Shown here piece after piece: positions 22,521 through 45,091 of a stretch of DNA of 64,000 bases. This DNA is from a virus: positions 64,001 through 128,000 of the IMG/VR virus record IMGVR_UViG_3300008085_000023; one strand, 5' to 3'. The notes beneath the pieces were generated by a model. It had not been told where the DNA came from, did not search any database, and saw only the letters and a program-made list of their open reading frames with translations. The translations under genes were made by a program, and so were the position numbers. Within the stretch, counting starts at the first letter, position 1. Every line of letters begins with the position of its first letter.

Positions 22521-22784
22521 TTATATCTCCATTTTACTATGGCTACCAGCACTCTTATGAATGCCTCTCAATACCTCGCCCCATCGGGATCCCATTTTAC
22601 GTTCAGCACGTTTATGCACTGACACTGTGTCATAAACAAAACTAATGCCAGAATAATCGCGTCTAACCTTACCTTTGGTCGAACACTTCGGGCATTTTTC
22701 ACCAATGGGTACTTCACGATCACTTATTGATAAGTCAACGCAAAACACCTCATTGCAATTTTCACACACATATTGGTATATCAT
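22521..22784 (-). CDS. FmdB-like zinc ribbon protein
   Basis: YQYVCENC...CPKC. Confidence 0.8.
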   Translation of the reverse strand: MIYQYVCENCNEVFCVDLSISDREVPIGEKCPKCSTKGKVRRDYSGISFVYDTVSVHKRAERKMGSRWGEVLRGIHKSAGSHSKMEI

Positions 22785-25673: not shown

Positions 25674-25749
25674 TGGAGGATGCAGTGAGAATCCAACTCA
25701 CACAATCACGGTTTGCAGCCGTGCGCCTTTAGCATTCAGCCATACACCC
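25674..25749 (-). tRNA. tRNA-Cys(GCA)
   Basis: cloverleaf, CCA; T-loop TTGGATT. Confidence 0.88.
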
Positions 25750-25767
25750 ATTAAACTACTTTGATCT

Positions 25768-25797
25768 ATATTAACATATTTAGGTGTAATTGTACAC
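25768..25797 (-). promoter_or_regulatory. early-type promoter for tRNA-Cys
   Basis: GTGTACA-N17-TAATAT. Confidence 0.7.
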
Positions 25798-25962
25798 CAT
25801 TAGTTTTGCTGCCCAAGGTGAAAGCTCTCACCTTAGGACTTTAAATAGGTCAACCTTTAAGTCGCATTATTGGAATTGCTTCTTCACATATTACATATAT
25901 CGGAGACTCATACGTCCAATTTGACGTCTCCTATTATGCGTATACCGATTGAATGTGTAAAT

Positions 25963-26044
25963 TGGTGCGGATGGTGAGAATCGAACTCACAAATAATTCA
26001 CCAAGGTTTGAGCTTGGCCGCTTTGCCAGATTGCGTACATCCGC
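25963..26044 (-). tRNA. tRNA-Leu(CAA)
   Basis: class II cloverleaf, CCA. Confidence 0.92.
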
Positions 26045-26053
26045 ATTTTGAAA

Positions 26054-26127
26054 TGGTTGCTTCACCGGGATTCGCACCCAGACAAAGAGCTTCAAAGACT
26101 CCTGTGCTGCTATTACACTATGAAGCA
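26054..26127 (-). tRNA. tRNA-Gln(TTG)
   Basis: cloverleaf, CCA. Confidence 0.88.
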
Positions 26128-26133
26128 ATAAAA

Positions 26134-26215
26134 TGGTACCAGTGGAGGGAATCGAACCCACAAACATATCACCTGCTTCTAAGGCAGGCCGCTTTGCCAG
26201 ATTGCGTACACTGGT
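26134..26215 (-). tRNA. tRNA-Leu(TAG)
   Basis: class II cloverleaf, CCA. Confidence 0.92.
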
Positions 26216-26379
26216 ATTAAAATGTGTTTAGTAGTGAACTTTACAACGCGAGAATTTATTGCTTCGCTCCACAATCGCTATATCAAGCAATTACTTCTGT
26301 TAGCATCAACCATCCTCGTAGATGTGATATCATCTATCTTCAACGTATTTCACAGTGTGATACCATGACTAAACATAAA

Positions 26380-26463
26380 TGGTGTGGATAGGGAGACTTG
26401 AACTCCCACGCCTTTCAGCACAACGTTCTCGACGTTGCATGTCTGCCATTTCATCATATCCAC
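26380..26463 (-). tRNA. tRNA-Leu(GAG), C33 variant
   Basis: class II cloverleaf, loop TC-GAG-AA, CCA. Confidence 0.85.
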
Positions 26464-26586
26464 ATAAAAGGTTTCGGCCCTTTGGAGATTTGAGCATTAT
26501 CTATATTCTTGCTACTTATGCGCTGGGAATATTGCTTAGACAAGAGGCTTTCCTCATTGGCCTTGACACTCGTCAGTGCCCATTAT

Positions 26587-26668
26587 TGGTGCGGATGGCG
26601 AGACTCGAACTCGCAAATAAATCACCAAGGTTTAAGCTTGGCCGCTTTGCCAGATTGCGTACATCCGC
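26587..26668 (-). tRNA. tRNA-Leu(TAA)
   Basis: near copy of Leu(CAA), CCA. Confidence 0.92.
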
Positions 26669-26719
26669 ATGAATTGACACTAAAAGGATTCGAACCTTCA
26701 TCTCTCTTACTTTAATCGA

Positions 26720-26795
26720 TGGTGCGATAGGCGGGGTACGATCCCGCAACCTCCACGTTGGCAACGTGGTATTCTCCCAGTTGAATTACTATCGC
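26720..26795 (-). tRNA. tRNA-Gly(GCC)
   Basis: cloverleaf, CCA. Confidence 0.88.
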
Positions 26796-26801
26796 ATAAA
26801 C

Positions 26802-26875
26802 TGGAGCCGACAGACAGACTTGAACTGACATCATCTGATTACGAAACAGATATTCTTCCTTTGAACTATATCGGC
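26802..26875 (-). tRNA. tRNA-Thr(CGT)
   Basis: cloverleaf, CCA. Confidence 0.85.
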
Positions 26876-26880
26876 GAAAT

Positions 26881-26956
26881 TGGTGCACCGGCAGGGACTC
26901 GAACCCTGATCTCACGCATTAAAAGTGCGTTGCTAAGCCAATTTAGCTACCGATGC
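26881..26956 (-). tRNA. tRNA-Lys(TTT)
   Basis: cloverleaf, CCA. Confidence 0.92.
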
Positions 26957-26965
26957 ATTTTAAAT

Positions 26966-27041
26966 TGGTACCTCTGTTCGGTAACGATCCGAATTCTCCG
27001 GGGTAAAGGCCCGGTCATCATCCATATAATGTTTCAGAGGC
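26966..27041 (-). tRNA. tRNA-Lys(TTT), atypical loop
   Basis: paralog of Lys(CTT) at 31370; loop CC-TTT-AC. Confidence 0.75.
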
Positions 27042-27050
27042 ATTGTAAAG

Positions 27051-27126
27051 TGGAGCCGACACTGAGACTTAAACTCAGTTCCCATCCGTACCAAGGATGA
27101 ATTCTAATCAGTTGAACTATGTCGGC
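27051..27126 (-). tRNA. tRNA-Thr(GGT)
   Basis: cloverleaf, CCA. Confidence 0.87.
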
Positions 27127-27137
27127 ATTAAAAAAAA

Positions 27138-27213
27138 TGGTTGGCCTGAGTGGATTTGAACCACTAACCTGCTGAGTCAGAGTCAGCCGCACCGCCAATT
27201 GTGCTACAGGCCA
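27138..27213 (-). tRNA. tRNA-Gln(CTG)
   Basis: cloverleaf, CCA. Confidence 0.92.
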
Positions 27214-27219
27214 ATAAGA

Positions 27220-27294
27220 TGGTCCCTAAGGAGAATTTCGAAATCTCGACATTTCGGATATGAACCGAACGCTCTGCCTCTGAGCTACCTAGGG
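27220..27294 (-). tRNA. tRNA-Met(CAT) (elongator Met or Ile2)
   Basis: cloverleaf, CCA. Confidence 0.85.
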
Positions 27295-27299
27295 ATGAA

Positions 27300-27390
27300 T
27301 GGCGGAAGTAAGAGGTATCGAACCCCAACCGCTTTTACACGGTCCAACTGTTTAGCAAACAGCGCCCATCACCATCAGGGATTTACTTCC
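27300..27390 (-). tRNA. tRNA-Ser(GCT)
   Basis: class II cloverleaf, G73, CCA. Confidence 0.9.
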
Positions 27391-27396
27391 AAAAAT

Positions 27397-27471
27397 TGGC
27401 TCGCGAGGCTGGATTCGAACCAGCGACAACTTGCTTAACAGGCAAACGCTCTACCACTGAACTACACGCGA
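27397..27471 (-). tRNA. tRNA-Asn(GTT)
   Basis: cloverleaf, CCA. Confidence 0.93.
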
Positions 27472-27478
27472 ATTAAAT

Positions 27479-27554
27479 TGGAGCCGCCACACAGACTCGA
27501 ACTGTGATCACTGGAGTACAAAACCAGGGCTCTAAGCCTTTGAGCTATAGCGGC
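27479..27554 (-). tRNA. tRNA-Thr(TGT)
   Basis: cloverleaf, CCA. Confidence 0.9.
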
Positions 27555-27561
27555 AATAAAT

Positions 27562-27637
27562 TGGTACTCCTACTAGGACTCGAACCTAGACTAAAAGCTT
27601 AGAAGGCTCTTGTGCTATTCCCTTACACCATAAGAGT
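27562..27637 (-). tRNA. tRNA-Arg(TCT)
   Basis: cloverleaf, CCA. Confidence 0.92.
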
Positions 27638-27645
27638 ATTAAAAT

Positions 27646-27721
27646 TGGTGGCACAGGTGGGGAATGATCCCACGACCGGCAGGGTTTCAATCTGCTACTC
27701 TACCAACTGAGTTACTGTACC
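27646..27721 (-). tRNA. tRNA-Phe(GAA)
   Basis: cloverleaf, CCA; T-loop ATCATTC. Confidence 0.85.
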
Positions 27722-27728
27722 ATGAAAT

Positions 27729-27812
27729 TGGTGGCGAAGGTAGGAATTGCACTTACAAGTCCGAAGAGGGTGATTTACAATCACTTGAGCCCACTACCTG
27801 CTCAACTCCGCC
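27729..27812 (-). tRNA. tRNA-Tyr(GTA)
   Basis: class II cloverleaf, CCA. Confidence 0.85.
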
Positions 27813-27821
27813 GTGTTAAAT

Positions 27822-27910
27822 TGGTGGGAAATGGTGGTAACGCACCACTTGTCTACTTCCGTTCTGTTTTTCGACGTTGGTTTTACAGACCAATGAACGG
27901 TACATCTCCC
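27822..27910 (-). tRNA. D-armless tRNA-Tyr(GTA)-like
   Basis: 7-bp acceptor, anticodon arm CT-GTA-AA, T arm, ACCA; only 10 nt in place of the D arm. Confidence 0.75.
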
Positions 27911-27976
27911 AAATAAAAATATGGGCCCTTATTACGGGTTTTCGACCGCGCGAGGGGCTAACGCCATGCTATTTGT

Positions 27977-28143
27977 TTTTGAAAGAGGTTCACCATAAAC
28001 GCTCAACAATTACCTAGGATGTTAAGCTTTCTCTGCTGACGTATCTTGCGATTGGATAGCTAATCCGGTGCGGCGAGAGTCGATTTAAGGACGTTTGCCA
28101 GACAAAACTAGAAACTGACCACAGACTGGTGAATCTTTCAAAA
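27977..28143 (-). ncRNA. unassigned structured RNA
   Basis: 17-bp terminal helix enclosing several hairpins, between tRNAs. Confidence 0.6.
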
Positions 28144-28220
28144 TGGTAGGACAGTTCAGAATCGAACTGAAATTATTTCTCGGTGTAAACGAGGTGCCAT
28201 AACCATTAGGCGACTGTCCC
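28144..28220 (-). tRNA. tRNA-Val(TAC)
   Basis: cloverleaf, CCA. Confidence 0.87.
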
Positions 28221-28900
28221 TACATAAATTTTCCACGAAGACCATCTCGTTTGCGGCCTTTCGTGTGATGTTGTGTATTTTCGTATCTCTTAATCAATGC
28301 TTCTTTTACATTTTTTACATGCTCAAGTGTTTTTGGTGTGCCCTTAAGCGCGTTTTTTACAATTGCTCTTCGACAATTCTCTGAACAAGACATACGATCC
28401 AAGCTAATTGATTTACCACAGTTTTTACAAAGGCCAGAACCCCTTTTATTCCAAGCGCTTCTGCCTTTCACCCACCCTTTCGGAATAATGGTATCATTAG
28501 AAATTCGGCTATTCTCTTTAAGCTCGATATTAGAAATCCACATTGTTCCAAACGAGCCATTAAATTTACCAACGCGCTTCTTACCATTAGCGCGCCATGT
28601 ATCTAAGCACATTTTTCGAACCGCTTCATACATGCGGGAATTGCGAATATGAGGAATACCACGTTCTTCACATCTCATTGCCATCATATGACAAGCATGG
28701 GCCATCTGTTTATTTTTATATATTCTAAATAAAAGTAGATGAGCAATCCAATGTTCACGACCTGTTAAAATTACTATATTAGTTAAAGAATAATCACCAC
28801 CCATTGATTTGGGTAATATGTGATGCCGCTCGGTATAGCCTATGGCCGGGTGCTGAAGACGTGTATTGATTAGTGAATCGTAAATATATTTGTAGTTCAT
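28220..28900 (-). CDS. HNH homing endonuclease (Mob-like)
   Basis: YTERHHILPKSMGG...NIVILTGREHWIAH; start ATG 28900 after TATAAATA. Confidence 0.88.
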   Translation of the reverse strand: MNYKYIYDSLINTRLQHPAIGYTERHHILPKSMGGDYSLTNIVILTGREHWIAHLLLFRIYKNKQMAHACHMMAMRCEERGIPHIRNSRMYEAVRKMCLDTWRANGKKRVGKFNGSFGTMWISNIELKENSRISNDTIIPKGWVKGRSAWNKRGSGLCKNCGKSISLDRMSCSENCRRAIVKNALKGTPKTLEHVKNVKEALIKRYENTQHHTKGRKRDGLRGKFM

Positions 28901-28926
28901 AAGGTTATTTATATATTTGCGAACTT

Positions 28927-28984
28927 TCAAACCCCCACAATCTGCGTGTAAAACAGAGGTTCTAGACCTTTGAACTAACAGGGC
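28927..28984 (-). pseudogene. truncated tRNA-Val(TAC)
   Basis: acceptor 5' strand, D arm and anticodon arm present; breaks off in the T loop. Confidence 0.75.
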
Positions 28985-28992
28985 ATTAAAAT

Positions 28993-29083
28993 TGGCGGAT
29001 GGAGTGAGACTCGAACTCACACGTGTTTTACCACTAACTGTTTTCAAGACAGCAGCCCGTAGACCGACTTGGCTTATCCATCC
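28993..29083 (-). tRNA. tRNA-Ser(TGA)
   Basis: class II cloverleaf, CCA. Confidence 0.92.
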
Positions 29084-29093
29084 ATAAAAAATT

Positions 29094-29163
29094 GTTCGGT
29101 GTCCTACCGTTAGACGACCACCCCGCAGTGGAGTAAGCAGGACTCGAACCTGCATTTCCGAAC
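29094..29163 (-). ncRNA. circularly permuted tRNA-like RNA (YrlA-type topology)
   Basis: order T arm, loop-closed acceptor stem, D arm; ends pair as the anticodon stem. Confidence 0.8.
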
Positions 29164-29169
29164 GTTCAT

Positions 29170-29268
29170 TGGTCAGGGATGTGGGATTCGAACCCACGAG
29201 GCATACACGCTTAGTATACCTATCCGGTTCCAAGCCGGACGAAGATAACCAGACTCTTCCAATCCCTG
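29170..29268 (-). tRNA. tRNA-Pro(TGG) with long variable arm
   Basis: C1-G72, A73, CCA; about 26-nt paired variable arm. Confidence 0.85.
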
Positions 29269-29273
29269 TAAAT

Positions 29274-29348
29274 TGGTGCCCTCTGAGAGAATCAAACTCC
29301 CATCATTCGGTTCGTAGCCGAGTATTCTATTCGTTGAAATAAGAGGGC
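29274..29348 (-). tRNA. tRNA-Arg(ACG)
   Basis: cloverleaf, CCA. Confidence 0.85.
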
Positions 29349-29359
29349 ATCTTATAAAT

Positions 29360-29445
29360 TGGCACCTAGGGTAGGAGTCGAACCTACAGTTGACTTTCGT
29401 CGACGGGTTAACAGCCCGCTGCAATACCATTCTGCTCACCTAGGT
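29360..29445 (-). tRNA. tRNA-Asn(GTT) with long variable arm
   Basis: G73, CCA; GAC-GAAA-GTC variable hairpin. Confidence 0.83.
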
Positions 29446-29453
29446 ATTAAAAT

Positions 29454-29527
29454 TGGCGCCCCATAGGAGTATCGATCTCCTTCTGCTACCGTGACAGGGT
29501 AGTGTGCTTCCATTACACCAATGGGGC
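29454..29527 (-). tRNA. tRNA-Asp(GTC)
   Basis: cloverleaf, CCA. Confidence 0.9.
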
Positions 29528-29535
29528 TTGTAAAT

Positions 29536-29610
29536 TGGTGCGGCAACTGAGTAACGCTCTCAGAACTAATGGGTGGAAGCCATTCGTGTATCTATTAACA
29601 CCTCTGCCGC
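29536..29610 (-). tRNA. tRNA-Gly(TCC)
   Basis: cloverleaf, CCA; T-loop AGCGTTA. Confidence 0.83.
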
Positions 29611-29751
29611 TCGAAAAATGAGAGAGGATCCTTACCATCACTATTCTAAATTTGTGATGATCATTTAATTTCCGGATAGGAGAAGTCTTTAGAAACCTCT
29701 ACGTCCTTGCCCTACTCTGAAACCCCTCGTAACAGAATCAACAGGCAATAT

Positions 29752-29826
29752 TGGGTTGACCAACGGAAATCGAATCCGTATCCCCGCATTCACAGTGCAG
29801 TGCTTTTGCCGTTAAGCTATGGCCAA
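29752..29826 (-). tRNA. tRNA-His(GTG)
   Basis: cloverleaf, C73, CCA; no encoded G-1. Confidence 0.88.
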
Positions 29827-29837
29827 ATTGTAAAAAT

Positions 29838-29914
29838 TGGTGCCCCCATCGGGCTTCGAACCCGAATCGCCGGATTGAGAGTCCAGTATTCTATACCGTT
29901 TAAACTATGGGGAC
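29838..29914 (-). tRNA. tRNA-Glu(CTC)
   Basis: cloverleaf, CCA. Confidence 0.9.
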
Positions 29915-29921
29915 GATAAAT

Positions 29922-29996
29922 TGGTGCCTCCTGTAAAACTCGAACTTACAACGTCAGGTTCGTAGCCTGATGTGATATCCGTTTCACCAAAGAAGC
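29922..29996 (-). tRNA. tRNA-Arg(ACG)
   Basis: cloverleaf, CCA. Confidence 0.88.
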
Positions 29997-30005
29997 AATA
30001 CCGTA

Positions 30006-30674
30006 TTAAAACTTTATCTTACGGCCGATAAGCCAGCCCTCAGGCACCAGCATATCTTTTGGAACTCGTTTTGAGACCTTTTCATATGGGTTGTAAATCC
30101 ACTTGGTCCCAAATTGGGAATTCCGACTGCCCAATTGACTAATTTTATTAGCCGACCCGATTCTTTTCTTAGCATCTTCTGAATGAGTTTTGCCAAGAAA
30201 TGCTCGAGTATTCTTACGCTTTAAGAAATCTGGATCATCTTCAATTTTTAGTTTCAAACCCGTAACCCCTTGAATTGCGAGAATACTTCGCCAATTAGGA
30301 CCATACTTCGCCTTTAATTTTTCATCTGCAGCGATCCGGCCTTTACGGGCAACTTCAACGTTGGAAAATCCATTGAGATTGTTTTTATTGATTAAATCCC
30401 AACCTCCAGAACCACCAACCTTTAGGTTATATGTGTTTTCTTCAGTTAAGAAATCTTCATTAACGATCTCAGCTTCTTTAGCATACATGTCTTCAGGGTT
30501 GTCGTAAACGAACAAAATCTCTTTGGTAAAGTTTTCAATACCATTCTTCTTTTGAGCTCGTTTTAGATACTTACCTGAACCCATATAATTGTCATTCGGA
30601 TCAATGGTCTTATGGCTTCCAATATAGAACTTGCCATTGATCCGATTCGTTATCTTGTATATCGTATAGAACAT
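30006..30674 (-). CDS. GIY-YIG homing endonuclease (Seg-like)
   Basis: IYKITNRINGKFYIGSH, YMGSG, YNLKVGG, NUMOD3-like GKTHSED. Confidence 0.92.
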   Translation of the reverse strand: MFYTIYKITNRINGKFYIGSHKTIDPNDNYMGSGKYLKRAQKKNGIENFTKEILFVYDNPEDMYAKEAEIVNEDFLTEENTYNLKVGGSGGWDLINKNNLNGFSNVEVARKGRIAADEKLKAKYGPNWRSILAIQGVTGLKLKIEDDPDFLKRKNTRAFLGKTHSEDAKKRIGSANKISQLGSRNSQFGTKWIYNPYEKVSKRVPKDMLVPEGWLIGRKIKF

Positions 30675-30730
30675 AGAATTACTCCATGTTCTTATTTATA
30701 CAAGTTCGAGTCTTGACTAGACTCTGAAAG

Positions 30731-30803
30731 TAGCGGAGGTTGGAATCGAACCAACGTCACTGGGGTTATGAGCCGCAGCGGGGAACCAGCACCCCACTCT
30801 GCA
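30731..30803 (-). tRNA. tRNA-Met(CAT), initiator-like, degenerate
   Basis: 1:72 mismatch, loop CT-CAT-AA, bulged anticodon stem, no CCA. Confidence 0.7.
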
Positions 30804-30806
30804 AAT

Positions 30807-30881
30807 TGGTACCCCTGAGCGGTTTCGATCCGCCTCCCTTTGGGTGAAAACCAAAGATCCTAGCCAGTAGACGACAGGGGC
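30807..30881 (-). tRNA. tRNA-Glu(TTC)
   Basis: cloverleaf, CCA. Confidence 0.9.
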
Positions 30882-30893
30882 ATTAAAAATTGT

Positions 30894-30968
30894 TGGTGGA
30901 CGATGCCGAACTCGAATCGGCATCCTCTGAGTGCAGGTCAGAGATTCTAGCCTTTGAACTAATCGCCC
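30894..30968 (-). tRNA. tRNA-Ala(TGC), C33 variant
   Basis: G3-U70, CCA; loop CC-TGC-AC. Confidence 0.88.
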
Positions 30969-31118
30969 TTAAAATGAAAATATAATGATCTATGTTTTAG
31001 CTGTTGATCACGGTCTACAACCATATCAACAAATTTCGAAAATGATAATGTTGATAAGCAAAATTCAGCTTTAAGCTGAGAAATATACTTTGCGAACTTT
31101 GAACAACTTCTATGCAAT

Positions 31119-31196
31119 TGGTACGAGGAGAGGGCCTTGAACCCCCATATCAACTGGTTATAAGCCAGCCGGCTTCACCGATTTGCCTATCCTCGC
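31119..31196 (-). tRNA. tRNA-Ile(TAT)
   Basis: loop CT-TAT-AA, A73, CCA. Confidence 0.87.
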
Positions 31197-31203
31197 ATTA
31201 AAA

Positions 31204-31278
31204 TGGTCCGCGATGGTGGTAACGCACCACCTTTCCCTGTGTATCAGACAGGAGTAATAACTTTTATACTAATCGCGG
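31204..31278 (-). tRNA. tRNA-Ile(GAT)
   Basis: cloverleaf, CCA. Confidence 0.85.
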
Positions 31279-31284
31279 ATAAAT

Positions 31285-31359
31285 TGGCAGGTCCACCCAG
31301 ATTCGAACTGAGACAATGAGTTTTGGAGACTCTCGTGCTACGCATTACACTATGAACCT
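31285..31359 (-). tRNA. tRNA-Trp(CCA)
   Basis: cloverleaf, G73, CCA. Confidence 0.9.
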
Positions 31360-31369
31360 AACGTAAAAA

Positions 31370-31445
31370 TGGTACCCCCGTTCGGTAACGATCCGAATTC
31401 TTCCGGTTAAGAGCCGGAACATCATCCATATAATGTTTCGGGGGC
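31370..31445 (-). tRNA. tRNA-Lys(CTT)
   Basis: cloverleaf, CCA. Confidence 0.87.
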
Positions 31446-31540
31446 AACTTGAAAAAAGGACACTCGCATTTTTGATAACAAGGTTGTAGAGTGTCAGCTC
31501 TCTATCCTTGGATTTTTTCCAATTTTCAAAACTATATTCA

Positions 31541-31554
31541 ATTGTCAATGATCG
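31541..31554 (-). promoter_or_regulatory. boxA-like antitermination element
   Basis: CGATCATTGACAAT, 10/14 match to rrn boxA TGCTCTTTAACAAT. Confidence 0.5.
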
Positions 31555-31559
31555 ATAAC

Positions 31560-31591
31560 AAAAAAGCCTCTTGGCTTTTCAGCTAAGAGGC
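31560..31591 (-). terminator. intrinsic terminator (attenuator) upstream of tRNA array
   Basis: GCCTCTTAGCT-GAAA-AGCCAAGAGGC-TTTTTT. Confidence 0.9.
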
Positions 31592-31625
31592 AAACATAAA
31601 CGAGCTATGTATGCGTCTTAACCGA
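31579..31625 (-). promoter_or_regulatory. antiterminator hairpin overlapping leader stop codon
   Basis: 31625-31606 pairs with 31598-31579 at 18 of 20 positions. Confidence 0.8.
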
Positions 31626-31719
31626 CACCCTCATCAGGTGTAATTTCGGCATTATGTTTCCATTGTGTGGAACATGTCCCTGCCAGGGGATTACTAAATC
31701 TATATAACTTCTTTATCAT
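31618..31719 (-). CDS. leader peptide containing all 20 amino acids
   Basis: MIKKLYRFSNPLAGTCSTQWKHNAEITPDEGVG*; lies between promoters and attenuator. Confidence 0.8.
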   Translation of the reverse strand: MIKKLYRFSNPLAGTCSTQWKHNAEITPDEGVG

Positions 31720-31727
31720 TCTACTCT

Positions 31728-31735
31728 TATTTATA
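31728..31735 (-). promoter_or_regulatory. T4-type late promoter
   Basis: TATAAATA. Confidence 0.75.
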
Positions 31736-31790
31736 CAACTTACTGCCTTCAATCTCAAATTATTTTCAATTATTTTCAAACTCTGGTAAT

Positions 31791-31906
31791 ACTATACCAC
31801 AATGTCCGTGGATTGTACACCGTTATTTTTCAATAACCGCTGCTTTCAGGTTGCTATCCCTTTAGCATCTAGATCTAGTATAACACAATGGCCATGGCAT
31901 GTACAC
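31791..31906 (-). promoter_or_regulatory. two tandem early-type promoters for the tRNA operon
   Basis: GTGTACA-N17-TATAGT (31791-31820) and GTGTACA-N17-TATACT (31877-31906). Confidence 0.8.
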
Positions 31907-31996
31907 CATTATTTTCAGTTTTCGGTAACTTTTTTGCTAAGTTGGCCATTATCAGGTACTTAGGGCTAAAAATAGTTTCCCGTACCGCGCGCGCGC

Positions 31997-33391
31997 CTAT
32001 ATATTAAGATCGCACACGCCGCCTGCACATGCCTGAGAGCCCATTTCATCTGCCTTTATTAAAAAGCTCTCTTCCACGAGGTTCACCCAATCTACAGTTT
32101 TATATGTGCGTGATAGGTCACACCATAGTTTCCAGTTAGAAACATCCTTGAGGCAATACGTCATTTGACGAAGATCGCCATTGAAATAGCGATCAGCAAA
32201 CTGCCGGCCCCGGCGGATCCAATCCATTTTTGCCGTGCGGGAATGTATAAAATCGTTTGATGGACAATCATAAGCGTCTATTGGTTCAAATTCTGTGTTT
32301 TCGCCAACACCTAATAATGTATCACACGCACGATATAGATTCTTGAAAGCCGCTAGGCCATCAACAATCATTCCAGATGCAAACACTGAAGCATCTCCAT
32401 ACATTTTGACTAGTTCTAAAGGTGAGTATACAGCACAGAATGGCGCTTGGTCGTAGTCCTTATCACCTGCGAACGACAATAGGGAAATACCAGCAAAGCT
32501 TTTACGGTTACGATAAATGTAGCTTTCGACAGCATCCCATTCATTATCCTGAAGTGTGATAGTGTTAGAGACGTTATTCCGTACAAAGTCTCTAACGCAT
32601 AATTCCTTTGTTGTGCCTTCTTCGACCCAATTCATTTGAGTCAGTTTAACATGCTCAAGCAAATCAATAGCAGACATCTTATTCTTAACCTTAGCGCCAT
32701 CTGGCACCTCGCACAAGAAGGTGATGACTTCATCGGTATCGTTAGCGCTCCATACACTATCTTCAACAGCATCAATATTTACGGATTTGAAATGTTGTGC
32801 AGGAAACTCTAGTTTATTAGCTTGAACTCTACGCATATATCGTTTGGCGTGATGAGGATGAATTCCAGAAGCAGTTCCCAATATGCAGCTTGCGCTTCCG
32901 CTCGGTTTGACGCATGTGCAGCGTGCGGCGGGATTGATGCCTATAAGATTTGCTGTAATCCGATTCCACTTCTTGACGACTCTCGCGCCTTTTCGCTGAA
33001 TACGTTCATCAAACAATACTTCAGGATTATCCATCATACCTGTAATAGAAACACCAAGCAGAGCTTCGCGGCGGGTGATCTTTTCTGTTATTTCACCAAG
33101 ATATGGGAAGTCTGTATATCCTGCCTGAAGTGTACCCAGAATTGCGGCGGCCTTGCACGCATCATAAAACTTTTCTTCATCAGAAGCCTTCTTCCCATTA
33201 ATCTCTGTAAGGTTGCAAAACTGAAAGCCTGATTCTTCAGATCCATCATCATTATACCAAATGGGCCACATCCCGATTTCAACGCAGTTGTGTACAAGCA
33301 TTCCATTTGCAAAAAAGTTATGATTACTTTCTACAGTAATATCATATACATCTTCATTGCGTTCAATTGAGAGTCTTTTAACTTTGGACAC
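31997..33391 (-). CDS. nrdJ: ribonucleotide reductase (class II, NrdJ-type) C-terminal piece fused to IntC
   Basis: 35-aa IntC then CVEI, FCNLTEIN, TCVKPSG, C-terminal CAGGVC. Confidence 0.88.
   Translation of the reverse strand: MSKVKRLSIERNEDVYDITVESNHNFFANGMLVHNCVEIGMWPIWYNDDGSEESGFQFCNLTEINGKKASDEEKFYDACKAAAILGTLQAGYTDFPYLGEITEKITRREALLGVSITGMMDNPEVLFDERIQRKGARVVKKWNRITANLIGINPAARCTCVKPSGSASCILGTASGIHPHHAKRYMRRVQANKLEFPAQHFKSVNIDAVEDSVWSANDTDEVITFLCEVPDGAKVKNKMSAIDLLEHVKLTQMNWVEEGTTKELCVRDFVRNNVSNTITLQDNEWDAVESYIYRNRKSFAGISLLSFAGDKDYDQAPFCAVYSPLELVKMYGDASVFASGMIVDGLAAFKNLYRACDTLLGVGENTEFEPIDAYDCPSNDFIHSRTAKMDWIRRGRQFADRYFNGDLRQMTYCLKDVSNWKLWCDLSRTYKTVDWVNLVEESFLIKADEMGSQACAGGVCDLNI
33287..33391 (-). 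mobile_element. split intein C-fragment
   Basis: VYDITVESNHNFFANGMLVHN/C. Confidence 0.93.
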
Positions 33392-42656: not shown

Positions 42657-42730
42657 TGGTTGGCCTAACAGGATTTGAACCTGTCCCAAGAGTGTCAAAG
42701 ACTCTTGTGCTGCCACTACACTATAGGCCA
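42657..42730 (-). tRNA. tRNA-Gln(TTG)
   Basis: cloverleaf, CCA. Confidence 0.9.
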
Positions 42731-45015: not shown

Positions 45016-45091
45016 TGGAGCCCGCAGTAGGCTTCGAACCAACGACCTGCTCATTACAAGTGAGCTGCTCTACCAACTGAGCTATACGGGC
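45016..45091 (-). tRNA. tRNA-Thr(TGT)
   Basis: canonical cloverleaf, CCA. Confidence 0.93.

Follow-up and report, generated by a model that had tools for sequence, protein, structure and literature searches.

A short open reading frame containing all 20 amino acids upstream of a phage tRNA gene array: a candidate leader-peptide attenuator

The leader module and its transcription signals

The stretch of viral DNA analysed here, in the following referred to as the window, comprises 64,000 nt, namely bases 64001-128000 of the virus record IMGVR_UViG_3300008085_000023, which has a length of 141.9 kb and a G+C content of 42%. The genes of the window are located on the minus strand. The subject of the present analysis is a short leader module composed of promoters, an open reading frame (ORF) of 33 codons and an intrinsic terminator, which is located upstream of a large array of tRNA genes and is a candidate for a ribosome-mediated transcription attenuator (Table 1). 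The array was annotated with ARAGORN, and the tRNAs for all 20 amino acids that the original prediction had placed downstream of the module were recovered; the Pro tRNA is an ARAGORN call that was left unscored by Rfam. Genes for GIY-YIG and HNH homing endonucleases interrupt the array, and it is flanked by a fractured gene for a class II ribonucleotide reductase (RNR) on one side and by the RNaseH gene on the other. Because the RNaseH is about 40% identical to RNaseH of pelagiphage HTVC008M and of cyanomyoviruses, and because a T4-type late promoter box is used, the source phage is read as an uncultured, distant T4-like myovirus.

Table 1. Coordinates of the leader module, its surroundings in the window and codon-matched modules of other phages
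Feature	Position	Strand	Description
Leader ORF	31618..31719	-	ATG start, 33 sense codons, stop codon TAA at 31620-31618
Promoter P1	31877..31923	-	A-rich upstream element, GTGTACA (-35-like), extended -10 TGTGTTATACT
Promoter P2	31791..31837	-	Tandem copy of P1, 86 nt downstream
T4-type late promoter box TATAAATA (P3)	31728..31735	-	8 nt before the leader ATG
Antiterminator hairpin	31579..31625	-	19 bp, -20.6 kcal/mol, from folding
Intrinsic terminator T1	31560..31591	-	-15.6 kcal/mol; stem 31591-31566, U6 at 31565-31560
tRNA array (proposed regulated target)	25674..31445	-	About 34 tRNA genes, all 20 amino acids (ARAGORN)
Second weak hairpin	31452..31495	-	7-bp stem, 23-nt loop, U6; immediately upstream of the first tRNA
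boxA-like GATCATTGACA	31543..31553	-	Pattern match; pattern found 9 times in the window vs 4.3 expected
Leader ORF of Caulobacter phage CcrRogue	NC_019408.1 51649-51744 (L338 12055-12150)	+	29-nt gap, then strong terminator
Leader ORF of Vibrio phage KVP40	NC_005083.2 178804-178917 (L337 12805-12918)	-	Unannotated, 37 amino acids, 19 amino-acid kinds (no Gly)
Leader module of G008	L086 4352-4483	-	23-amino-acid ORF, then 15-bp terminator and U7

A recount of the leader ORF gave 20 of the 20 amino-acid kinds in 28 distinct codons, in agreement with the original prediction, so that the amino-acid sets of the ORF and of the downstream array coincide (20/20 each). Each amino acid is sampled one to three times and codon runs are absent. 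The original prediction had also proposed to compute how often 33-codon windows contain all residues; this composition proved to be rare and was found in 28 of 79,854 stop-free 33-residue windows (3.5e-4) when all six reading frames of the 141.9-kb genome were counted, and the leader ORF was the sole all-20 ORF among 726 complete ATG ORFs of up to 40 amino acids in the genome. Since the occurrence of one such short ORF somewhere in the genome is nevertheless about a 1-in-3 event and unremarkable alone, the weight of the argument rests on the location of the ORF and on the data from other phages.

All three promoters claimed originally were identified, two of them as members of one family and the third as a late promoter box. 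P1 and P2, at 31906-31877 and 31820-31791 within the ranges of Table 1, belong to a family with the consensus aAAATAAtgGTGTACA-N13-TGGTATAAT-agatc, in which an A-rich element and GTGTACA are followed after 13 nt by TGGTATAAT. The family has 23 copies in the genome, 22 of them on the coding strand, and probably represents the early promoter class of the phage. Its minus-strand sites include the window positions 242, 4443, 6745, 9951, 12527, 15261, 24268, 25797, 35528, 42588, 44296 and 55750, and the motif was also found in the relative L021 (12763-12806), upstream of RNaseH. P1 and P2 form the only tandem pair of the family in the genome. As no family member is present from the terminator down to position 25797, early transcription of the array must cross the terminator. 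The copy at 25797 separately serves the last tRNA (Cys).

The late box TATAAATA occurs 33 times in the genome, compared to 12.6 expected occurrences, with 32 of the 33 on the coding strand, and it is usually placed 5-9 nt upstream of the start codon of long ORFs. In at least 12 cases a long ORF begins with exactly TATAAATA-N5-ATG, e.g. at window positions 22525, 17012, 34155, 28913 and 24712 on the minus strand. The start of the leader ORF has the arrangement TATAAATA-N8-ATG and shares this spacing with a 521-amino-acid gene; that the late box is spaced from the leader ATG as from other gene starts independently supports this ATG as a real start. Late transcription in T4 begins about 6 nt past the box. 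By analogy, the late leader mRNA is probably leaderless or nearly so, which would permit a ribosome to load once the 5′-end emerges, and many late mRNAs of this phage would be leaderless as well if transcription starts at the same distance as in T4.

The stem of the terminator T1 begins 26 nt past the leader stop codon, and the terminator lies 114 nt before the first tRNA. In agreement with what had been claimed for the stop codon, folding placed it in the 5′ arm of a hairpin which captures the whole 5′ arm of the terminator and is more stable than T1. This antiterminator is formed by the pairs 31625-31616/31588-31579, 31614-31612/31592-31590 and 31610-31605/31599-31594. Its 5′ arm contains codons 32 and 33 and the stop codon (GUC-GGU-UAA), and its 3′ arm contains the entire 5′ arm of the terminator, so that the two hairpins exclude each other thermodynamically. 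When the masking of T1 was compared with upstream-context controls, the ensemble probability of the terminator, P(terminator), was 0.002, and an equal masking by 69-nt upstream contexts was reached by 0.8% of shuffled and 0.2% of random genomic contexts. The late transcript folds far better than its shuffled versions (z = -4.35), and a z-score of -3.6 was also obtained for the region.

Ribosomes were modelled by masking the nucleotides under the footprint and subsequently computing P(terminator) from the ensemble. The value was 0.06 for the free RNA, dropped to 0.000 and 0.001 when the ribosome stalled at codon 8 and in the middle of the ORF, respectively, and rose to 0.976 once the ribosome had reached the stop codon. 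The model thus behaved as originally expected, with the array predicted to be off when the ribosome is at the stop codon and on when it stalls earlier. None of 150 ordinary gene-end terminators that were treated identically displayed such a switch.

Recurrence upstream of other phage tRNA arrays

IMG/VR was scanned in two independent samples for a pattern of three closely spaced T-arms, which yielded 226 contig stretches with 250 tRNA arrays. At least 250 nt of upstream sequence was present for 202 of these arrays, namely 63 large arrays (at least 12 tRNAs) and 139 small ones. Complete ATG ORFs of 20-60 amino acids within 500 nt upstream of an array were counted, and Met plus residues of real proteins, taken from 1248 long ORFs of the same contigs, served as the null. 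In sense orientation, seven of the 69 ORFs upstream of large arrays contained all 20 amino acids, compared to an expected number of 0.45 (Poisson p = 4.8e-7). No all-20 ORF was found among 64 antisense ORFs upstream of large arrays (0.50 expected under the uncorrected real-protein null), and one was found among 149 sense ORFs upstream of small arrays (1.07 expected). The first sample contributed four all-20 ORFs, each located before a large array (L194, L128, L126, L166), and the replication sample another four, of which three precede large arrays (L255, L321, L325) and one precedes an array of 7 tRNAs (L278). Among random short ORFs of the same contigs 7 of 3904 were of the all-20 type. When only modules consisting of an ORF plus a terminator were regarded, all-20 ORFs were present in 5 of 16 modules before large arrays vs 1 of 92 elsewhere (Fisher p = 2e-4). 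The phages with all-20 leaders share no DNA outside the tRNA genes, and their leader peptides have no common sequence; the diversity without sequence conservation that the original prediction had expected upstream of other arrays was hence met with in both samples.

Within this collection, three pairs of leader ORFs from different contigs (L255/L284, L312/L240 and L333/L247) have kept the peptide with synonymous changes. The ORF at L255 13694-13813 (minus strand) pairs with L284 3115-3213 (plus strand) and that at L312 2190-2294 (minus strand) with L240 280-378 (plus strand), with conserved residues such as PIIC..SYG..ART..WSL. A search for cultured relatives of the L284 and L321 leaders gave no result. 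The relative G011, the RNR of which is 50% identical to that of the window phage, carries a 47-amino-acid all-20 ORF upstream of its array. This ORF follows an early-type promoter and TATAAATA, and downstream of it a consensus promoter and no U-tract terminator was found. Homology between the leader peptides of the window and of G011 was not significant (p = 0.14), and a KHN motif common to both was judged to be due to chance.

The distance between the stop codon and the terminator stem was 25-34 nt in 13 of 13 modules (the window and 12 analogues), with two of the 13 spacings (L255, L284) measured by hand. Among 162 gene-end terminators the median distance was 22.5 nt and 15% were within 25-34 nt, and 33% of 92 short-ORF-plus-terminator modules away from arrays were within 24-34 nt. 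The binomial probability of the observed spacing was 4e-8 for the nine automated measurements and 2e-11 for all thirteen. Li et al. 2015 (PMC4824070) measured full efficiency for terminators located about 30 bp downstream of the stop codon, with nearer ones being repressed by the ribosome. On the basis of this distance dependence, a spacing of 25-34 nt would be about the closest placement which lets the terminator fold with a ribosome on the stop codon while pairing of the spacer is blocked.

A switch was modelled in 3 of the 13 modules compared to 0 of the 150 controls (p = 4e-4). In L128, which belongs to a GC-rich phage and has the leaderless layout TTGACG-17-TATCGT-7-ATG, P(terminator) was 1.0 for the free RNA, 0.012 for the stalled ribosome and 1.0 at the stop codon; the corresponding values for L167 were 0.96, 0.09 and 1.0. 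L297 came close to a switch (0.14 free, 0.06-0.23 stalled, 1.0 at stop), and a partial switch was modelled for L194, L325 and L126. Unlike in the window, the untranslated RNA is predicted to terminate in L128, L167 and the Caulobacter phage CcrRogue (free-RNA P of at least 0.96).

CcrRogue, a phiCbK-like phage, carries an unannotated leaderless ORF of 31 amino acids with the run QFVQIQVV and the promoter-ATG layout TTGACC-17-TAGCTT-7-ATG, which directly precedes a tRNA block with the order Phe-Val-Ile-Ile-Val-Gln-Gln. Here, P(terminator) was 0.999 for the free RNA, 0.097 with the ribosome stalled in QFVQIQVV and 0.999 at the stop codon. In Vibrio phage KVP40 the leader ORF is followed after a 28-nt gap by a terminator, about 70 nt before tRNA-Pro-2, which heads the main array; the record of this phage has a coding sequence annotated on the strand opposite to the 37-amino-acid ORF. 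In G008, which represents a 62-kb part of a far larger phage, the ORF contains 7 Leu codons of five kinds, 2 Tyr and 6 Ser codons, directly precedes tRNA-Leu(CAA, TAG, GAG, TAA) and tRNA-Tyr, and lies in a region with a fold z-score of -7.3. The modules of CcrRogue, KVP40 and G008 fit a class of codon-matched leaders; the extreme case of this class is one leader with all 20 amino acids in front of a complete array.

Further features were observed around the array of the window. The spacer past T1 folds no better than shuffled sequences (z = -0.73), so that the weak second hairpin upstream of the first tRNA probably terminates poorly. The boxA-like element in the same spacer may seed rrn-type antitermination for the untranslated array; taken alone it is weak evidence, as the pattern is frequent in the window. 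In 10 of 204 arrays (L136, L165, L166, L167, L217, L240, L247, L293, L297 and L333), a boxA-like GTTCTTTGACA lies 17-38 nt upstream of the first tRNA, compared to 1.2 expected and one in antisense orientation, with the exact GCTCTTTAACA in L136 and L297, which suggests that rrn-type antitermination operates on phage tRNA operons. The first tRNA of the array in the window (31370-31445, minus strand) has the Lys anticodon CTT and the unusual T loop AUCGUUA; it was called by ARAGORN and remained unscored by the Rfam tRNA model (E ≤ 1). Isolated tRNAs for Gln and Thr are located on the minus strand at 42657-42730 and 45016-45091, about 10-13 kb upstream of the RNR gene. In G010, the nearest long relative, the whole array (L085 172-5139) lies roughly where the window has these isolated tRNAs and runs into the contig end; the position of the array is shifted between the window phage and its relatives. 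Within the array of the window, a non-tRNA stretch of about 230 nt (about 27900-28143, minus strand) matches L085 2096-2330 of G010 in blocks of 21-39 nt, including an exact 39-mer at 27975-28013. These blocks are nearly identical although the RNR of G010 is only 69% identical, and the stretch is probably a conserved stable RNA. A conserved 20-mer derived from the array had a match only in G010.

The attenuation model and competing explanations

The reading that we favour, and consider more probable than all others taken together, is that the module is a ribosome-mediated leader-peptide transcription attenuator which reports the overall decoding speed and gates read-through into the tRNA array. 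According to this model, transcripts from the tandem promoters P1 and P2 and from the late promoter would carry an ORF in which every amino acid is sampled. If the first ribosome keeps up with the RNA polymerase and reaches the UAA codon, its footprint would lie over 31625-31616 in the 5′ arm of the antiterminator, with the result that the terminator would fold and transcription would end. If the ribosome is late due to the scarcity of any aminoacyl-tRNA, or if no ribosome has loaded, the more stable antiterminator would form first and sequester the 5′ arm of the terminator, and the polymerase would enter the array. The new tRNAs would then speed up decoding, which would close a negative-feedback loop. 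The outcome would be decided by a kinetic race between ribosome and polymerase. The default without translation would be ON, and early transcripts from P1 and P2 may read through. A role against host defences which cleave tRNAs is conceivable, and a link to host anticodon nucleases is speculation.

Several observations weigh against this model. The leader of the window has no 1:2 anti-antiterminator hairpin and, as judged by its P(terminator) of 0.06, the untranslated RNA reads through; as in addition the Shine-Dalgarno sequence at the leader ATG is weak (AAGAG), the transcripts from P1 and P2 may be largely unregulated. Codons of the leader are not enriched for those readable by the tRNAs of the phage itself (26 of 32 vs a background of 0.83); pooled over 14 leaders, this match displays a modest excess (z = 2.6). 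Asp and Val are confined to codons 29 and 32, where a stalled ribosome would itself cover the antiterminator arm, so that only about 18 of the 20 amino acids would be in a sensing position. The expectation that a stall at almost any codon turns the array on would apply to these 18 and not to Asp and Val. Among the other arrays, an all-20 ORF was present at only 7 of 63 large ones (about one in nine), any ORF-plus-terminator module at only about a quarter of them, and several arrays have their own promoter past the terminator (L297, L255, L284, G011). The amino acids of small arrays were not enriched in the upstream ORFs in a mirror test (p = 0.71), which was crude in that blocks were merged and arrays were cut at locus ends. 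The modelled switch is missing in roughly half of the analogous modules, with L166, L240, L312 and KVP40 being without an equilibrium switch and the partial case of L126 being counted with them. Since co-transcriptional kinetics are ignored by equilibrium models, such differences among the modules call for caution but do not refute the model.

No homologue of the leader peptide was found among 5.8 billion protein sequences, and the leader sequence had no match in cultured phages (blastn), in IMG/VR (exact pattern) or in the fetched relatives (tblastn and blastn). Synteny searches via the neighbouring RNR and RNaseH genes led to relatives with at most 72-75% amino acid identity, none of them with an array at the same position, and the ten metagenome copies recovered by exact-protein look-up are at least 99.97% identical. 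With no homologous leader and near-identical copies, there was no informative variation for covariation of the hairpin pairs, which likewise counts against the model. No Rfam family, T-box included, matched across 31446-32000 (E ≤ 1).

Other explanations for the module were weighed against the same data. The ORF could belong to an independent mini-gene cassette that has a promoter and a terminator of its own and encodes a genuine small late protein. Its location would then be incidental, and the tRNAs would be transcribed via leaky read-through or from unrecognised promoters. We regard this as unlikely, even though the ORF bears the start signature of late genes, many analogous modules have a separate sigma-70-type promoter before the tRNAs, about half of them are without a modelled switch and the peptide is conserved with synonymous changes in the pairs L255/L284, L312/L240 and L333/L247. 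A functional protein is hard to reconcile with the lack of any homologue in the protein search and with a composition which recurs across unrelated phages when the sequence does not; an incidental position is at odds with the restriction of the all-20 excess to large arrays and the sense strand, with the fixed spacing of 25-34 nt and with a terminator masked by a stop-containing hairpin, and QFVQIQVV before the Phe, Val, Ile and Gln tRNAs of CcrRogue would be left unexplained. Stable RNAs of unknown function, thought to act in trans, are located beside the tRNA genes of T4. The module might correspondingly be a structured non-coding leader or a small RNA with an untranslated ORF, in which the hairpins process or stabilise the tRNA precursor or an RNA of about 165-290 nt acts in trans. 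The folding of the region far beyond that of shuffles (z = -3.6 and -4.35) and the weak Shine-Dalgarno sequence would suit such an RNA, but structure alone gives no cause for an open all-20 frame, an antisense excess is absent, the late box lies at gene-start distance from the ATG and no Rfam family was found in the region. All in all, an RNA of this kind appears quite improbable.

A translated leader could also act with the opposite polarity, as a coupling sensor of the type known from pyrBI, in which a close ribosome suppresses termination so that efficient translation means ON and slow translation OFF. Trailing ribosomes do repress terminators near stop codons (PMC4824070), and the modules without a predicted antiterminator (L166, L240, L312, KVP40) need another effect of the ribosome. 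At 25-34 nt, however, such repression is fading or gone, a ribosome at the stop codon permits the terminator in the models of the window, L128, L167 and CcrRogue, and a positive feedback on tRNA supply would make little regulatory sense; we assign this polarity only a small probability. That the whole arrangement is a set of coincidences brought about by post hoc selection is very improbable: one all-20 ORF among 726 short ORFs is unremarkable within the genome and the property was noticed only after looking, but the prediction was borne out again by independent data (p = 4.8e-7), and neither the spacing (p = 4e-8 for nine and 2e-11 for thirteen modules) nor the modelled switch (3/13 vs 0/150, p = 4e-4) is expected by chance.

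Relation to known attenuators and implications

The working principle of the proposed attenuator is that of the known family of ribosome-mediated attenuators; new are what is sensed and what is controlled. Leader attenuators of enterobacteria regulate ilvGMEDA, ilvBN (32 codons), thr, leu, his, trp and pheA, with the ilv and thr leaders sensing two or three amino acids. The module of the window shares with them a short leader ORF, an intrinsic terminator, an antiterminator that uses a common strand and the principle that the ribosome position would decide which hairpin forms, and it is similar in length to the ilv leaders (33 vs 32 codons). It differs from them in that codon runs and the 1:2 anti-antiterminator are absent, that the late transcript is probably leaderless and that the target would be a phage tRNA array and not a biosynthetic operon. 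Attenuators which respond to stalled ribosomes in general are known from Bacillus vmlR and bmrCD, Listeria lmo0919 and the erm and cat leaders. There too, a stall on a short upstream ORF, and not one particular amino acid, remodels the RNA and opens downstream expression. Unlike the proposed sensor, these inhibitor-responsive attenuators control resistance genes and depend on drug-arrested ribosomes in specific peptide or codon contexts, whereas the all-20 composition of the ORF appears to be the selected property in the window. T-box riboswitches are also terminator/antiterminator leaders that sense the status of tRNAs. They bind uncharged tRNA directly and without translation, and in contrast to T-boxes the antiterminator of the window is the more stable hairpin.

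A leaderless arrangement has been described for mycobacteria, in which leaderless polycysteine short ORFs are reported to be cysteine-responsive attenuators (bioRxiv 10.1101/834739). A leaderless first cistron, the translation of which controls downstream genes, is common to this system and to the layout in L128 and CcrRogue; the mycobacterial system as described there senses a single amino acid and controls a host operon and no tRNA genes, which sets it apart from the window.

A full-text search of the literature brought up neither a description of a leader peptide or attenuator upstream of phage tRNA genes nor one of a leader with all amino acids, which is in line with the novelty originally claimed; the nearest published systems are the multivalent ilv and thr leaders, the antibiotic attenuators that respond to stalling and the leaderless polycysteine ORFs. 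In current discussion, the tRNA genes of phages are regarded as a help in codon usage and as a means to counteract the depletion of host tRNAs. We give an even chance to the more general view that many phages with large arrays use a usually leaderless all-amino-acid mini-ORF, the ribosome of which races the polymerase to a terminator 25-34 nt past the stop codon, such that tRNA supply would be raised when any tRNA limits, and that this constitutes, together with block-specific codon-matched leaders, a general control layer that has not been described before. If this is true, tRNAs might become limiting through codon mismatch, host shut-off, starvation or the action of host anticodon nucleases. 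The related modules in the cultured phages KVP40 and CcrRogue make the idea directly testable, and the element of about 170 nt is portable and a candidate sensor of translation speed or of the depletion of single tRNAs for synthetic biology. An all-amino-acid leader would widen attenuation from the scheme of one pathway and one amino acid to a global read-out of decoding capacity, and the tRNA supply of the phage would become self-tuning.

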